Positions 5,249 to 50,910 of a DNA stretch of 63,067 nucleotides are shown one piece after another (position 1 is the first letter of the stretch; each line of letters begins with the position of its first letter). Location: IMG/VR virus record IMGVR_UViG_3300020045_004922, positions 1-63,067 of that record; one strand, given 5' to 3'. Position numbers and translations under genes: made by a program. A model generated the notes under the pieces. The model was given only the letters and a program-made list of their open reading frames with translations. It did no database searches and was not told the DNA's origin. This DNA comes from a virus (lineage: Duplodnaviria; Caudoviricetes).

Positions 5249-5950
5249 CTAGCCAATCAATTCCCAAATATAGTCAGCAGCATTTGTGCTTTCTACAGCA
5301 GTAGATTTATTGAATGCTAATCCCATATAGGTAGTTGTTCCTTGAACGTATGTGTCAGTTAATCCTGCGCCTACCGAGCTAGTACCAAATTTCTTCCAAG
5401 TATAAAGAGTTACCGGAGTAGTAACTTTATTGTAGATGATAACTGGTTCTGTTTCGCCCAATACAGATGGAGCCAATGCAGTACAAGAAATGTGAACGGC
5501 AGTTGCTTTTGTTTGCGGAGTGCTCATATCCAAGTTAGGAGTAAGAGTTCCGTTAGTAAAGATAATTACTTGCTCTCCGTCTCCAGAAGTAACTTTAATC
5601 ATCCTTTCTTTTACGGTAGCGCTTAAGCTCAATCCTACGGCATCAAAACCAGAAGGGACATACGATGGAGTAGTTGTAGCATAAAACTCTTCTAGGATAG
5701 CTAAGGATACGTCTGGAATATCAAACTCCAAGGTAGTAACCCCTGCTTTATAGATAGATTTCAACGGGGCATCTTGTTGGTCAACTTCAATATCAGTACG
5801 AGTCGGTACGGGTTGAGTCAACTTCACAGAGTCACGCAAAGTATAAAATAATTCAGTCCAGACAGTACTTTCGGTGATAACCCCAACAGGAGCAATTTCC
5901 ACCTTTGAGATACCTGTCATAATTTGTTGTTCGTGGCCAAGTGTTGCCAT
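5249..5950 (-). CDS. Major tail (tube) protein
   Basis: 233 aa, Thr/Val-rich, upstream of chaperone and TMP; short C-terminal YTWKKF...ADYIWELI appendage. Confidence 0.75.
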   Translation of the reverse strand: MATLGHEQQIMTGISKVEIAPVGVITESTVWTELFYTLRDSVKLTQPVPTRTDIEVDQQDAPLKSIYKAGVTTLEFDIPDVSLAILEEFYATTTPSYVPSGFDAVGLSLSATVKERMIKVTSGDGEQVIIFTNGTLTPNLDMSTPQTKATAVHISCTALAPSVLGETEPVIIYNKVTTPVTLYTWKKFGTSSVGAGLTDTYVQGTTTYMGLAFNKSTAVESTNAADYIWELIG

Positions 5951-5952
5951 AG

Positions 5953-6351
5953 TTAGAATCTTTTTAGTATTGTTATTAATTTAATCATTTGAAATGTGTA
6001 ACCATTACCGTCTTGTGCTAATGGGGTCTCCGTAAAATACGAATATGAAAATTTGTCAGAAGAATAGGGCAAGGCTGTTGCGATTGTGTTTCTGATTGAG
6101 CTTACTCTGTTGCGATTTAGGATATTTCCAGAATTTTTTGCGTATATCTCTACAACCGTAATTACTCTTCCATGAGCTCCTAAATCAGAAACTTCCGTAC
6201 TAACCCTTACTACAATTATCTCTTGCATCCCAGTCTTAGCTACAGCAGCCGGTCGACTGGATTGATAAAGATTTGATGTCAGTCCAAGCGTTTTTATTTT
6301 GGCAATAAGCGTATCTTCTATATCAACCACATTATAATTTTCTACGCTCAT
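5953..6351 (-). CDS. Tail terminator/completion protein
   Basis: 132 aa; synteny directly upstream of the tail tube gene. Confidence 0.55.
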   Translation of the reverse strand: MSVENYNVVDIEDTLIAKIKTLGLTSNLYQSSRPAAVAKTGMQEIIVVRVSTEVSDLGAHGRVITVVEIYAKNSGNILNRNRVSSIRNTIATALPYSSDKFSYSYFTETPLAQDGNGYTFQMIKLITILKRF

Positions 6352-7966: not shown

Positions 7967-9148
7967 TTATGATGCCGCTTGAGAAATATCAAGGTAAAGC
8001 AAATCATTTACATTGTTCGGTACTGTGATTCCGGTAAACTCAGCCTCAAAAGACATAGTTTCAGCAGCAGTATCAATCAATTGTTTAATTTTTACTTTTC
8101 CACCTTCTGTTACATAAATTGGGTTCGCAACGGTTCCAAAAGAAGTGTTAGGGAAACTCCATTGCAATTCACCAATTTTACCAGCAGGAGAACCTACAAC
8201 TACATTGTCAGCAAATCCGCGAAGTTTCTTTTTCTTCAAAGAGCGAGATGCTACGTCAAATGCGCTAATTGTAAAAATGTCGTCGATAACTTCAATCGGA
8301 GCGATACCAAGACCTTCAAGATGCATTGTAATTTGAGCATCTGTAACCGCGTACTTAGTAAGATTTGCAGAATCAATTGCACCACCAGTTATTTGAATAG
8401 CTACGGCACTACGAGTAGATGCGTGGTTTTTCAATACATACCAAGTAGCCTTGTTCATTCTGATGACACCAACCGGAGTAAAGTTATCTTCGCCAAGTTG
8501 CATCAAATCTAACAAGTCGCCGATTGGATAAGCCGAAGCAGAACTCCATGCATATTTTGTTCCGTAAGTACCGAATCCGGCTAGTTTTTTATTTGCGGCA
8601 GGGACTTGGAAGTCAAATTCAAGACCAACTAAACCGCCACCATTATTCACTTCGGTAGATGTGTATTTACCAGTAGACAATATTTGCAAACCAGTGTACG
8701 TAATCTGATTGTGAACCCCGCTAATAAGTTTAGTCGTGTTAAGAATAAATTGCTCCAATAGCTGAGAGTAATTTGGCATAGCATTCATTTGCTGAATCAG
8801 CTTTTGAAGCTCGTCCATTGATTTCTCATTGGTATCAAATGCAAGTTTCATGCGAGGCATGTTCTTAGCATTTATTTCGATTGTGTCAGTTCCAATCTTA
8901 GGGGCATCACCATCGTAGGCAACGTACCTTGCAATTACTGGAACTGATTTTTCGCCAATAGTTTGACGATATTCTTTGTAAACAGATCCCGGAGCTTCGT
9001 CATAAAGTTGAGTCCATTTTACTTGTGAGAATTTATCTGCAAATGCTGTTTCGAAATACACTTTCATGCTATCGTAACCGCCAGATGCAAGCGCACCTTG
9101 CAAAAGTGCGTACATGCTTGAGTCTATAGTTCCTGTAGGGAATGCCAT
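7967..9148 (-). CDS. Major capsid protein
   Basis: 393 aa after scaffold and decoration genes; ARYVAYDGDAPK...MPRMKLAF and FDFQVPAANKK segments resemble lambda-E-like capsids. Confidence 0.85.
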   Translation of the reverse strand: MAFPTGTIDSSMYALLQGALASGGYDSMKVYFETAFADKFSQVKWTQLYDEAPGSVYKEYRQTIGEKSVPVIARYVAYDGDAPKIGTDTIEINAKNMPRMKLAFDTNEKSMDELQKLIQQMNAMPNYSQLLEQFILNTTKLISGVHNQITYTGLQILSTGKYTSTEVNNGGGLVGLEFDFQVPAANKKLAGFGTYGTKYAWSSASAYPIGDLLDLMQLGEDNFTPVGVIRMNKATWYVLKNHASTRSAVAIQITGGAIDSANLTKYAVTDAQITMHLEGLGIAPIEVIDDIFTISAFDVASRSLKKKKLRGFADNVVVGSPAGKIGELQWSFPNTSFGTVANPIYVTEGGKVKIKQLIDTAAETMSFEAEFTGITVPNNVNDLLYLDISQAAS

Positions 9149-12323: not shown

Positions 12324-13841
12324 ATGACCCCAAAAGAAATATTATTAAAAGATCCATTTAAAAGAATCAATCCTGATATTACAGGGATGAGTTGGAACAT
12401 CTACGGAGACGATGGTTCGCTTCGTTCGGTAACACCTAGCAATGCTACATATCAAATAGTAACACAAGATGATTTTCTAAGAGAATACGATCCTAGTGGG
12501 CACAAAATTTTTAACAGGTCGTATTACATGGATCGCCTAAAAACCGACGACCAAAAGCGGACATATATTCATTATGTAGAGCGTAATGCATTCGCCTTTC
12601 AATCCGTAATAACTACAAAAAGGCTAACACATCTATGGGGAAATCCAATTAGGTTCACAAACTCTAGCCCAAATCCAACAGCAGCGCAGGATTTTTTAAT
12701 GCGTGACTTCAAGCAGGGCTGGGCTAAGAAAAATATGGAAGAGGGTTTGTTTGCTTGTGGAAAATCAGAAGCAATAACCGGAGATGCTGCAATGTGCTTT
12801 TATTTGAAAGATGGTGTTGTTGGATACAAAACTTTTTCATATCAAAATGGAGAAGTGCTTTATCCACATTATGATAGATTCACCGGAAAGCTAAGTACAT
12901 TCGGTAGGCAATACAAATCTTACGGAAATGATGGAGTAACAGTTGTTAATGAATACTTGGATGTATGGGATGAAAGAAATTTAACAACATACCAAAGAAC
13001 AAATAATTTAAAAACAAAAGTTAAGGCGTTGATTGGACTTGACGGATGGGAATTAGTTGGCGCTCCAAAGCCTCACGGATTTTTAAGAATACCAGTGGCG
13101 TACAAAAGGAACGCTGTAGGAGCTTGCTGGAGTCTTGCCCAAGATTCTATTGACAAATACGAACTGGCCGTTTCTAATCTTAGCGAAAACAATAAGGCTT
13201 ATGCTTTCCGTATATTATTCTTAAAAGGAGAACAGATAAATGCTGTAGCTGGCGGAGATGGTGGAGTGGGGCTTATTACAGGAGATAAAGATTCAGAAGC
13301 TAAGTTTTTAGAAAGAGCTGATGCAAGTGCTTCGTTTGAATTACAGCTAAAAATACTAAGACAAAATATTTTTACCAATTCATTTTCAGTAGAGCCTCCA
13401 GAAGTAAAGGGAGGAGATTTGCCGGGGGTTACAATTAAGTTATTGTACTCGCCAGCCGTGGAAAAAAGCATGGAGGAGAAGGCAGAATGGAACTACTTTA
13501 TAGACGACTGTGTGGCGCTGTTTAAGTACGGATACGGAATGGAAATAAAGAAGATGGCAGAATACGAGTCTCTGGACGTTAGAGGGGAAATAGTGCCTTA
13601 TGTGCACCAAAACTCAATGGAAATTCAAACAATATTAAACGGGGCTGTTACATCTGGCGTATTGTCGAAACAAACGGCTGCTGAAAATGGAGTCTATTCA
13701 AGTAATAATGAGTACGAGAAAATACGGAAAGAAGCAGACGAGAAGGCTATTAAAGATGCTGAAATAAAAGCCACTGAAAATGCCACTAATTTAGCTAGAC
13801 AGGCGGCTGCTGGAAAAGACCCAGAGCCAAGTCAAGTGTAA
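12324..13841 (+). CDS. Portal protein (SPP1 gp6-like)
   Basis: 505 aa following TerL; HLWGNPI, HGFLRIPVAY, LPGVTIKLLY, LSKQTA motifs. Confidence 0.88.
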   Translation: MTPKEILLKDPFKRINPDITGMSWNIYGDDGSLRSVTPSNATYQIVTQDDFLREYDPSGHKIFNRSYYMDRLKTDDQKRTYIHYVERNAFAFQSVITTKRLTHLWGNPIRFTNSSPNPTAAQDFLMRDFKQGWAKKNMEEGLFACGKSEAITGDAAMCFYLKDGVVGYKTFSYQNGEVLYPHYDRFTGKLSTFGRQYKSYGNDGVTVVNEYLDVWDERNLTTYQRTNNLKTKVKALIGLDGWELVGAPKPHGFLRIPVAYKRNAVGACWSLAQDSIDKYELAVSNLSENNKAYAFRILFLKGEQINAVAGGDGGVGLITGDKDSEAKFLERADASASFELQLKILRQNIFTNSFSVEPPEVKGGDLPGVTIKLLYSPAVEKSMEEKAEWNYFIDDCVALFKYGYGMEIKKMAEYESLDVRGEIVPYVHQNSMEIQTILNGAVTSGVLSKQTAAENGVYSSNNEYEKIRKEADEKAIKDAEIKATENATNLARQAAAGKDPEPSQV

Positions 13842-13847
13842 TAAAAC

Positions 13848-13881
13848 AAAACCCCAAGAGTTTTTAATTCTTGGGGTTTTT
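13848..13881. terminator. Bidirectional intrinsic terminator
   Basis: AAAACCCCAAGA-N-TCTTGGGGTTTT between the convergent portal gene and the ncRNA/tRNA unit. Confidence 0.8.
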
Positions 13882-13884
13882 AAA

Positions 13885-14390
13885 TTCAGTCCTCGCATAA
13901 GGAATAATAAGCCGTATTCTAGTTAAAGTCGATAAACCTAGAACGCTATAGTAGGATATTTTTCACTTATTATATTTACACAAACTATCTCATGCCTAAG
14001 AAAAACTTTAAGAACACTAAAGTCTGTAAAGCTCGTTTGCTTCAATCTGATTTTTTTTTCGAACGTGGACACCACATTCCATTTTGCTCAGAACAAATGA
14101 CTTAGACTTGAACGGAGACTTTCTTCCATTTTAAAGTGCAGATATAATGACAAGGCCTACATCAACACCAGCAAACTTACACCGTCCTAAGCTGTTAGGG
14201 GGACGCGGTTAATTACTCCGGATAAACTTAAGCTAACCTTGCACGTAAATTTTATCGGCTTTAAGCACCGATGTGGATTCATTTTCAGAACTCGCTATAT
14301 AAAAGTCCCATTTCTAAAGCGTCCTTTAGTAGATAGTAGTTAATTCTACTCGCCTTTTCGCAATCCTTTCGGAGTTGTGCGGGAAATATT
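13885..14390 (-). ncRNA. Candidate large structured non-coding RNA (~500 nt)
   Basis: No convincing ORF; at least 8 hairpins including a GAAA-capped stem on the - strand; downstream of a tRNA and ends at a terminator. Confidence 0.55.
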
Positions 14391-14392
14391 GT

Positions 14393-14467
14393 TTTAAAAC
14401 AAGCGGAGTCGAACCGCCGAAAACCATACACTCTCGCGCAAGTTATACCCTGACCGCAAAGTTCCCT
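14393..14467 (-). other. Degenerate tRNA-like element (intact T-arm only)
   Basis: GGCGG-TTCGACT-CCGCT T-arm; weak acceptor pairing; no canonical D or anticodon arm. Confidence 0.4.
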
Positions 14468-14473
14468 CGTAAG

Positions 14474-14546
14474 GTGCGGGAAGTAGACTCGAACTACCGA
14501 CCTTTGGGTTATGAGCCCAACGCGCTACCAACTGCGCCATCCCACA
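14474..14546 (-). tRNA. tRNA-Met(CAU), initiator-like
   Basis: TGTGGGA-TG-GCGC AGTTGGTA GCGC-G-TTGGG CTCATAA CCCAA-AGGTC-GGTAG TTCGAGT CTACT-TCCCGCA; three G-C pairs at the base of the anticodon loop as in fMet tRNA; no encoded CCA. Confidence 0.9.
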
Positions 14547-14778
14547 CAAAGTATCGTCTTTCCGATATGTCATGAGTCGCATACTCTTCCTTCCGCATGA
14601 CCCAAGCATCGGAACTTTTCGCACCGACTAAACTTCTCAGTCTCGTCGGGGCTTGAATAAAAACCAACTTATCTATGAAAATCAAAAATCCAATTTAATG
14701 AGAAAAATAAAAGCCAAGTACTGCACATCTTATTTAATTACATCAGCTTGATTGATGTCTACTGGTATTTTTCTAATG

Positions 14779-14786
14779 CAAAGATA
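14779..14786 (-). promoter_or_regulatory. Promoter -7 box for the tRNA/ncRNA unit
   Basis: TATCTTTG(CA) on - strand just after the 14792 stop. Confidence 0.6.
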
Positions 14787-14791
14787 ATCAA

Positions 14792-15373
14792 TTATTCTGA
14801 TTTAGCCAAATCTGCAACATATTTTTCACATATTTTAACTTTTTCTGGTTTTGAAAGAGTTGTTTTGTGTGAAATACTATGAGCTAATAACCATTCGGAA
14901 AGTTGCGCTCCACTTAGTGCTTCGAATATTGGGAAGGTTTCTTTTTTCTCTAAGAATATAACTTCGGAATCTTTGTCAGAGGTTATAATAATTCCGCGCT
15001 CCAATTCTTCACCCCCTAGCTCTTCGTTAACTTCTTCTTTGTCGTCAATAAGATTTATGTCGAGTGGAAGTTCGCCATCGCTTTCTTTTGAGCTTTCAAA
15101 ATTTCCATCTGGCTCGTCTTCAAAATCTTCTTCGGTATCGTCAGCCTCTTCATTCTCATATAACTCCAAAAATTCGTCAACCATTCCGAAATTTGTATTC
15201 GGATCAAAAGCAACATCCGGTGTAAGAAAATCTTCGTTCCATTTTGCAACTACGAAATTTTCCATCCCTCTGCGCGAAACTTTTGCTGCCATTAAGCCTT
15301 CGAATTTTTCAAAAGGAGACAAGACTGGTGCGCCCAGCTTTTTGAGCTTTAAATAATCTAAAATTTGTTTCAT
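14792..15373 (-). CDS. Acidic hypothetical protein
   Basis: 193 aa with a long D/E-rich centre and small helical C-terminal domain. Confidence 0.7.
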   Translation of the reverse strand: MKQILDYLKLKKLGAPVLSPFEKFEGLMAAKVSRRGMENFVVAKWNEDFLTPDVAFDPNTNFGMVDEFLELYENEEADDTEEDFEDEPDGNFESSKESDGELPLDINLIDDKEEVNEELGGEELERGIIITSDKDSEVIFLEKKETFPIFEALSGAQLSEWLLAHSISHKTTLSKPEKVKICEKYVADLAKSE

Positions 15374-49806: not shown

Positions 49807-50910
49807 ATGCCAAAATTCAAACTTTCATTCGCCTCTCAGCGCGACAAACTTATACTTAAGTTTTTCAAGGACGGGAAACAGTATCGCGCTAAGTCGACTG
49901 GTATCCCATTTAAGTCAATTGATGATGCTGAAAATTCACCCAGTCTTGCCCTAATTCTTTCAAATTACGAAAGCGCATTTACAAAGGCTATTTACGAATA
50001 TGAGATAACCGGAGTTGAGCCAGACTTAGCTGTAGCTCCATTAGAAGTGGAATCTAAACCCGTAATTTCTCCAAAAGAATTTTTTACTAAAGAAAAATGC
50101 AGAATATTTTCTGAGTATTTAGATGCAGAAACTACTTGGGCTGATATTACGGACGGATATATTGAAAACTTTGTCGAAGAAATAAATTCAGACGACTACG
50201 CTGACAATACTATTAAGGCCTACCTAAGAGACGTTCGCGCCACTTTAGATAAATCGGCAAGACATGGTTATAAAATAGCGTCACAAGGCTACAAAAAGCT
50301 GCTGAGCCATAAAGAAGGGACTACTACTTCTATTTTTCTTGACATGAAAGATATTGGGGTGTTGGAAACTCTTAATTGCGAAGATATGCTGGAGGAGGCA
50401 GTTCGAATTACCTTTCTAAAAGCGTGCTACTCTGGTTGCCGTTACTCCGATATTGAGAAGTTGAAGACTGCGGCTATAGTCGATGCAGAATATCATACGA
50501 TAGAAGGCGGTATAGAAAATGTGAGCTCTATAAGTTATGTATCGCAAAAGACTCAAATGGCTACAAGTGTACCACTACATAGTAAACTGAGAGCGCTAAT
50601 AGGAATGGAAATCAAAACACCCAGTGTCGGACAAATGAACCGAATTTTGCCTATCATTTGTCGCAAGGCAGGAATTACTTCTCCGGCAGAAGTTTTCAAA
50701 TGTGGAAAGCAGTTTTACGGTGAAAAATGGGAATTTGTAAGGTCGCATACCGCTCGTAAATCTTTCGCAACAAACCTTTATATTATGGGATGCTCTATTC
50801 GGGACATCGCAAACTATGTAGGTCATAAAAATGAAGCTACTACACTTAAGACTTATATCCGGTGTGGGGCAATATATAATAAATCATTTATTAACGGATT
50901 TTTTGGATAA
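49807..50910 (+). CDS. int: Tyrosine recombinase/integrase (Bacteroidota type)
   Basis: N-terminal arm KSTGI, SAM-like NTIKAYL, catalytic GCRYSD, SQKT, HTARKSFATN, GHK, TYIR. Confidence 0.9.
   Translation: MPKFKLSFASQRDKLILKFFKDGKQYRAKSTGIPFKSIDDAENSPSLALILSNYESAFTKAIYEYEITGVEPDLAVAPLEVESKPVISPKEFFTKEKCRIFSEYLDAETTWADITDGYIENFVEEINSDDYADNTIKAYLRDVRATLDKSARHGYKIASQGYKKLLSHKEGTTTSIFLDMKDIGVLETLNCEDMLEEAVRITFLKACYSGCRYSDIEKLKTAAIVDAEYHTIEGGIENVSSISYVSQKTQMATSVPLHSKLRALIGMEIKTPSVGQMNRILPIICRKAGITSPAEVFKCGKQFYGEKWEFVRSHTARKSFATNLYIMGCSIRDIANYVGHKNEATTLKTYIRCGAIYNKSFINGFFG

Follow-up and report, generated by a model that had tools for sequence, protein, structure and literature searches.

A tRNA-adjacent non-coding stretch of a phage genome as a probable chain of independent hairpin modules

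Introduction

In phage T4, RNAC and RNAD map to the region of the tRNA genes and arise by processing of the tRNA transcripts. Both are listed as small phage RNAs that were validated by Northern blot and whose function is not established (PMC9697503). The tRNAs carried by phages have themselves been proposed to evade anticodon nucleases or to neutralise PARIS (PMC10264068, PMC11464382). The ROOL and GOLLD RNAs are described as often lying near tRNAs and in prophages, ROOL being about 580 nt long with conserved multistem junctions and pseudoknots (PMC5737381).

The stretch of DNA analyzed here (the window) spans an entire phage record of IMG/VR (63,067 nt), with a completeness estimate of 96%. 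An original prediction had proposed a single, highly structured RNA of about 500 nt at positions 13885–14390, in a context like that of ROOL and GOLLD. The stretch resembles these RNAs in being non-coding, phage-borne, adjacent to a tRNA and probably co-transcribed with it, but it matches neither model, holds local hairpins only, with no conserved junction, and varies in module content between close relatives. The context held up insofar as a tRNA-Met gene (14473–14546) stands on the same strand of a phage record, but this is a feature common to many unrelated elements. With phage tRNA islands the locus shares tRNA-like remnants and a tRNA identity swapped at a fixed slot (Met versus Phe), although reports on such islands concern real tRNAs and the conserved modules here are non-tRNA. 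The closest functional analogy may be with T4 RNAC and RNAD, as stable hairpin RNAs riding on a tRNA operon, although the host is of a different phylum.

Results

The phage and its locus

The record is that of a phage with portal, terminase and integrase genes. The nearest cultured relatives of its portal (42% identity or less) are phages of Bacteroides, Phocaeicola, Parabacteroides, Riemerella and Porphyromonas, and because these infect Bacteroidota the host is probably a member of that phylum. A tyrosine integrase is encoded, and the phage is therefore probably temperate. The genes and the gap to which the text refers are as follows.

12324–13841, + strand: portal gene (phrog_64), preceded by the large terminase gene
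13842–14791, unit read on the − strand: gap holding the studied stretch
Other side of the gap, − strand: 193-aa ORF of a family without assignment, followed by a single-strand-binding protein gene
49807–50910, + strand: ORF of the tyrosine integrase (PF00589, 41.8 bits, match at 50398–50862)

No ORF of at least 60 aa fills 13842–14791 under table 11, table 4, TAG=Q or TAA=Q, which bears out the description of the stretch as free of ORFs; the longest table 11 ORF inside 13885–14390 has 48 aa. A protein gene under a changed genetic code was rejected, as table 4, TAG=Q and TAA=Q opened nothing that fills 13885–14390. Translated similarity, searched in every frame of the stretch across 159 portal-related loci, was absent beyond the same four close relatives that share its nucleotide blocks. 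The G+C content of the stretch (33–41%) equals that of the coding background.

Folding of the whole stretch and searches for known RNA families

The − strand of the 506 nt had a minimum free energy (MFE) of −117.9 kcal/mol, versus −113.8 ± 5.7 kcal/mol in 100 dinucleotide shuffles (z −0.72); 24 of the 100 shuffles folded as well, and the + strand gave z +0.59. Six sub-pieces were compared in the same way, and only 14049–14168 stood out (z −2.37, a value reached by 6 of 200 shuffles), the other five lying between z −1.2 and +0.5, i.e., no better than shuffles. Folding energy relative to shuffles had been set beforehand as a refutation criterion, and by this measure the stretch as a whole is no more packed with stems than expected by chance. 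All the short − strand complements that had been named are nevertheless present at sensible coordinates, among them:

− strand: TCC (14373) with GGA (14366)
− strand: AGTAG (14350) with CTACT (14339)
− strand: CTAAAG (14329) with CTTTAG (14319)
− strand: ATCGG (14272) with CCGAT (14258)
− strand: CGTCC (14205) with GGACG (14187)
− strand: TTCTAG (13943) with CTAGAA (13922)

The proposed long-range complements did not survive, as they either clash with better-supported local hairpins or lack their partners in relatives: TGCAC (14140) is the 3' arm of hairpin m1 and ATGTGG (14077) the 5' arm of hairpin m3, and both AGATTGAA (14048) and GTGCA (14244) sit in segments without BLAST match in relatives.

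A cmscan search against Rfam 15 covered the whole window at the gathering score and 13700–14900 at E ≤ 10. Neither search matched ROOL (which we take to be RF03087), GOLLD, tmRNA, RNase P or another large RNA, in agreement, for ROOL and GOLLD, with the earlier failure to match either by inspection. At E ≤ 10, terminator look-alikes and a sub-threshold tRNA-Sec match were the only results. ARAGORN and Rfam found no tmRNA in the window, and the method does detect a tmRNA in contig L171. ROOL was likewise without Rfam match in the loci of seven relatives and in contigs L162, L165, and L171. The 224 motifs of PMC5737381 were compared through their Rfam descendants only. With no Rfam match, a fold at the level of shuffles and patchy conservation, the proposed single RNA of about 500 nt of the ROOL or GOLLD type found no support; membership in ROOL itself was rejected, since relatives keep only patches, the supported helices are all local, and z is −0.72.

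Conservation in close relatives

Portal scans gave 79 loci in IMG/VR and 80 more among metagenome contigs (159 together). The only close relatives reaching past the portal gene were L003, L004, L005, and L008 (portal 84–96% identical), with L003 the closest at 96%; the contig of L013 (93%) ends inside the portal gene. The metagenome contigs held no portal relative closer than 58%, and therefore no extra close homologues. Searches of 13885–14473 with nhmmer and tblastx against the 159 loci matched these four relatives only. BLAST showed that conservation is confined to patches:

13841–13884: terminator
14049–14168: block B
14250–14298: block C
14350–14473: block D
14552–14572: short patch
14616–14669: block F
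13885–14048, − strand: segment u1, without BLAST or nhmmer homologue in the 159 loci

Segment u1, 14169–14249 and 14299–14349 had no BLAST match in the relatives, in which other sequence stands at these places. The fold of 13899–14048, within u1, gave z +0.46. The blocks in common are 88–100% identical, versus 70–89% for the flanking genes; this high block identity could reflect recent recombination rather than selection. Gathering homologues beside related portal genes, as had been suggested, thus yielded four relatives that keep the blocks, but the rest of the stretch is replaced. As a side observation, block C extends by about 70 nt at its 5' side in L003 (5489–5605, − strand) and L008 (5903–6021, − strand), an extension absent from the window that forms a long hairpin with z of about −2.1 in both.

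In three wastewater runs (probably DNA), contigs reach high depth over the blocks, and low-depth wastewater contigs do cover segment u1. The contigs of the three runs join the blocks in further ways (13888 to 14081, 14298 to 14402, 14298 to 14473, 14395 to 14616, 14547 to 14616, and 14669 to 14779), which points to a variant population differing by whole cassettes. At most 0.18 of sampled words were present in sequencing runs. A 151-nt contig from one sludge RNA library covers 14084–14155 with unlike flanks, which shows presence only.

tRNA, putative promoter and terminator

The elements that frame the stretch are listed in the order in which the − strand is read.

14810–14779, − strand: putative Bacteroidota-type promoter (TTTG at 14810–14807, a 20-nt spacer, and TATCTTTG at 14786–14779)
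14669–14616, − strand: block F, leader hairpin (CCGAC 14649–14645 pairs with GTCGG 14627–14623)
14546–14473, − strand: tRNA-Met, anticodon CAT (ARAGORN; Rfam tRNA, 64 bits)
14472–14394, − strand: tRNA-like remnant with a T-arm-like hairpin at 14418–14402 (tRNA-Sec, 17.2 bits versus a threshold of 47 bits)
13880–13848, both strands: two-way intrinsic terminator, common to the portal gene (inverted repeat I1, 15-nt arms, 93% complementary)

Where a tRNA cluster had been announced, ARAGORN and Rfam find one tRNA, Met(CAT). In L003 its slot, between blocks E and D, is occupied by a tRNA-Phe(GAA) at 5868–5942; the window and L003 share identical flanks right up to both ends of the tRNA, as if one cassette, Met(CAT) or Phe(GAA), had been exchanged precisely for the other. 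The piece at 14394–14472 was rejected as a tRNA, ARAGORN being silent, the Rfam tRNA-Sec score lying below 47 bits and the stem being broken in L003, where three uncompensated changes fall in the T-arm-like hairpin. Other tRNA-like sequences occur in the relatives. In L008, a 74-nt sequence at 6022–6094 (− strand), directly after block F, looks tRNA-like by eye, with a CCA end and an abnormal anticodon region, and was called by neither ARAGORN nor Rfam. In L003, ARAGORN reports at 6041–6113 (− strand) a tRNA with a two-base anticodon (tg), which scores 40.6 bits with the Rfam tRNA model.

The putative promoter overlaps the stop codon of the 193-aa ORF and would place the start near 14772. Its motif, TTTG-N20-TATCTTTG, is identical in the window, L003 and L008, and the −7 motif TAnnTTTG occurs in the window at 0.8 per kb per strand. 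A second TAnnTTTG (TAAGTTTG) was seen at 14179–14172 (− strand), 4 nt upstream of hairpin m1; it may be an internal promoter, or chance. The same octamer stands at 5391 in L003, at the place where m1 and m2 are missing.

Block F is 98–100% identical in L003 and L008, versus 70–81% for the adjacent gene, and an exact 28-mer of it occurs in IMG/VR in these two only. The terminator that had been predicted beside the stretch is real, with a hairpin and U run on both strands: A and T runs flank it, and T runs follow the stem in either direction. It gives terminator-type partial Rfam matches, is 94–96% identical in L004, L005, and L008, and was missed by a simple terminator scan. At the level of motifs, the putative promoter and the terminator would frame a unit of about 925 nt.

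Hairpin modules

Block B resolves into three hairpins (m1, m2, and m3), and further hairpins lie upstream of it on the − strand.

Within 14381–14335, − strand: GAAA-loop hairpin (CGCA 14381–14378 with UGCG 14362–14359; UCC 14373–14371 with GGA 14366–14364)
14350–14335, − strand: h4 (AGUAG 14350–14346, loop AAUUAA, CUACU 14339–14335), 3' of a conserved linker and the GAAA hairpin
14298–14250, − strand: block C hairpin (AUCGG 14272–14268 with CCGAU 14258–14254)
14168–14136, − strand: m1, with 10–11 pairs and an 11-nt loop, followed by an invariant linker ending in AUG
14119–14086, − strand: m2, with outer stem CUC.G/C.GAG, inner stem CAAGU/AUUUG and a 7-nt apical loop
14079–14061, − strand: m3, with 8 pairs and a UGU loop, followed by an A9 run (14059–14051)

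Single-sequence MFE finds m1, m2, and m3 independently, and recovers m1 in the window, L008, L162, and L171 (L162, L165, and L171/L173 are contigs of other phage lineages, described below). Compensatory changes were seen in four hairpins. In h4, the stem is AGUAG/CUACU in the window and AAGUG/CACUU in L003, L005, and L162, with three neighboring pairs double-changed. In m1, two pairs change on both sides and two to or from G.U, with 95.5% of cells paired. The 34 nt of m2 are identical in the window, L005, L162, and L165; four differences in L171/L173 all fall in two outer-stem pairs (U-A to C-G and G-C to A-U), and the changes in L008 and L004 are confined to the apical loop. Hairpin m3 is fully paired in six of six sequences (window, L003, L004, L005, L008, and L165), with one pair double-changed and two changed via G.U, and is marginal when taken alone (reached by 28 of 500 shuffles). 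The hairpin at the GAAA position keeps its stem in L005 with a different loop (RNAfold per sequence and alignment). The block C hairpin is 100% identical in L003 and 98% in L008 and folds with z −0.05; neither block C nor block F has informative substitutions.

The covariation set was of six sequences from about four lineages, with the L162 and L171 rows non-homologous in the m3 columns. In it, 93.4% of 136 cells pair, versus 85.5 ± 1.7% in shuffles (0 of 500 as high), and 7 of 23 pairs change on both sides, versus 2.2 in shuffles (again 0 of 500); slid-register controls paired in 28–50% of cells. Control (b) is biased in favor of the structure, because the structure was drawn from the same six sequences. 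Among the 136 cells we count 18 G.U pairs; read from the + strand these would become A.C, a pattern that fits an RNA from the − strand only. These patterns are best fitted by selection for structure in m1, m3, and h4, and for structure and sequence in m2.

Hairpin m2 is present in one copy in the window, which holds no complement of at least 10 nt to it elsewhere; the only repeated 10-mers in that search have the same sense, as starts of − strand genes. The AUG that follows m1 (14129–14127) is invariant in the window, L004, L005, L008, L162, and L171, in an A/U-rich context. In the window and L005 the frame that it opens runs for 13 codons, as it does, with one change, in L004; it has 1 codon (AUG UAA) in L008, 4 in L162 and 9 in L171. 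Because of this variation in length a conserved small peptide was rejected; the AUG may rather be a ribosome-loading or start-stop element.

Recurrence in other phage contigs

By pattern scanning, the modules were also detected in phage contigs of three further lineages, L162, L165, and L171/L173. Neither L162 nor L165, the two contigs compared, showed tblastx similarity to the window. In all three lineages the modules occupy a region free of ORFs and lie on the coding strand. This region comes, in both L162 and L165, after a tiny lysine-rich ORF; beyond it stand an intrinsic terminator, then a promoter of the Bacteroidota type and, just downstream, the gene of a chaperonin-like protein of about 520 aa, GroEL-type by eye (L162 1741–3297, + strand; L165 5094–6674, − strand). 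The nearest called tRNA is more than 2.5 kb away in both; in L171 a tRNA lies about 430 nt downstream of the element. Two further observations concern these contigs: L162 and L165 each have a tRNA with anticodon TCA, labelled SeC by ARAGORN, and L171, which carries m1 and m2, also has a phage-borne tmRNA at 8007–8382 (+ strand; Rfam RF00023, 75 bits).

Module content differs among carriers. Both L162 and L171 carry m1 and m2 with an additional hairpin inserted between them, and L162 also carries h4; L165 lacks m1 but carries m2 and, at the 5' end, m3; L003 has h4, block C and m3, and is without m1 and m2; in L008 the h4 leader has no match. Such variation from phage to phage speaks against a single integrated fold.

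For block B, a covariance model (R1) was run over 253 loci and the window, loci above L257 being searched by nhmmer only. The model found no further member in these 253 loci and the window, and L196 (25 bits) and L235 (20.6 bits) were rejected as hairpin-only matches. Of the 18 stretches given by an m1 17-mer scan, those in L171 and L173 were the only new carriers of the element (regex and nhmmer); the remaining stretches outside the known contigs are taken as chance. The m3 scan, with 14 specified bases, gave at least 116 stretches, almost all of them chance, and a match of the h4 leader in L166 lies inside an integrase-like ORF and was dismissed as chance. The m2 30-mer and 21-mer are absent from the genomes of 185,579 prokaryote species (one genome per species), and therefore no host or prophage was identified that way. 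Among GenBank phages, the 949-nt gap matches tRNA-Met genes only (24 records), and the non-coding stretch of L162 has no match.

Discussion

On balance, the stretch is probably the tail of a tRNA operon, made up of a chain of independent hairpin modules with cassette-like turnover. It would form the 3' two-thirds of a non-coding − strand unit of about 925 nt, running from the putative promoter (14810–14779) through leader hairpin F, tRNA-Met, the decayed tRNA-like piece and a string of hairpins (GAAA hairpin, h4, C, m1, m2, m3), each local and independent, to the terminator (13880–13848). Cassettes of about 50–160 nt, tRNAs included, would be exchanged, lost or gained between the short conserved blocks. 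The primary transcript would be co-transcribed with the tRNA, RNase P and RNase Z would cut at the tRNA, and the trailer may release one or more small stable RNAs, for which m1-m2-m3 (14168–14061, about 110 nt) is the best candidate. Within it, m2 could serve as a recognition element whose specific sequence is read by an RNA or protein of the host or the phage, because its primary sequence is near-invariant across unrelated phages.

What stands of the original prediction is a non-coding stretch, sensed on the − strand, parts of which have conserved RNA-like structure that falls in no curated family; one large RNA does not stand. The large-RNA reading is not supported, and a modular small-RNA motif absent from Rfam 15 is a candidate of moderate strength.

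Hairpins of a tRNA operon may also be without function of their own as RNAs, being processing or stability signals, attenuators, or largely neutral spacer with decayed tRNA cassettes. We consider this unlikely. The perfect identity of m2 (34 of 34 nt) across phages without detectable protein similarity, next to an m1 whose stem top and loop differ, speaks against it, as do compensatory changes in four hairpins and blocks more conserved than the neighboring genes; in L162 and L165, moreover, the modules stand more than 2.5 kb from the nearest called tRNA. The tRNA-like piece at 14394–14472, visibly decaying in L003, does speak for it, as do the free turnover of the segments between blocks, the five of six sub-pieces that fold no better than shuffles, and the absence of both m1 and m2 from L003.

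The main rival is a single multi-domain RNA of about 330–500 nt, reaching from the GAAA hairpin or h4 through m3 and perhaps to the terminator. It would be a new class, with peripheral stems that are freely replaced linking the conserved segments of a core. This weaker form of the original idea is favored by order: h4, the 3' end of a C-type hairpin, a GCA-CAAGG segment, m1, m2, and m3 follow one another in both the window and L005, and the order of h4, m1, and m2 is kept in L162 too, which fits a longer RNA with variable peripheral stems. The extra hairpin between m1 and m2 in L162 and L171 recalls the variable stems of large RNAs. A pairing of an upstream segment with the m1 loop (CAAGG/CCTTG) also appears by eye to be kept, as CAAGGA/UUCUUG in L008 and CUAGGA/UUCUAG in L162, but, again by eye, it is not kept at the homologous place in L171, and a complement of 5–6 bp within 100 nt is also expected by chance. 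The closest relative, L003 (portal 96%), is without m1 and m2, the most conserved parts; L008 has no h4-leader match and L165 no m1; m3 stands 3' of m2 in the window type and at the 5' end in L165. No multi-stem junction is conserved, and the whole-region MFE equals that of shuffles. With the parts of its would-be core present in some phages and missing in others, and with such fold statistics, the single RNA loses ground and is distinctly unlikely.

A bolder extension of the modular reading is that h4, m1, m2, and m3 form a new modular small-RNA family of unrelated Bacteroidota phages, riding in tRNA-type operons, with m2 active as a decoy or guide to a host factor, e.g., a tRNA-targeting defence nuclease or a tRNA-modifying enzyme. 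The shape of m2 is anticodon-arm-like: its inner stem has 5 bp, and the second nucleotide of its 7-nt loop is U. We regard this extension as highly doubtful.

That the conserved core acts as DNA is very improbable, whether as the core of an attachment site, as a hotspot of recombination or homing, or as a small palindromic mobile element of the phages of one host group: 43 nt are identical in otherwise unrelated contigs, a tyrosine integrase is present and the neighborhood is cassette-like, but the integrase gene is 36 kb away, the m2 30-mer and 21-mer occur in none of the 185,579 prokaryote species genomes searched (one each), the element is single-copy in the window, the G.U pairs make the hairpins strand-specific, and recognition of DNA does not require compensatory substitutions.

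The tail of a tRNA operon, as a chain of hairpin modules, thus remains the reading that we prefer. The absence of ORFs and an abundance of stems beside a phage tRNA do not in themselves make a large ornate RNA, and here the comparison of close relatives told conserved modules from replaceable filler. Phage small RNAs that ride with tRNAs are already known as a kind; the motif itself has no entry in Rfam 15. Should the modules prove to be real RNAs, they would offer a compact, testable motif of about 110 nt with three hairpins and one near-invariant loop, present in several lineages of uncultured phages that are related most closely, among cultured ones, to phages of Bacteroidota. They would also add a small-RNA layer to phage tRNA islands, the role of which, in codon supply or in counter-defence, is under active debate.
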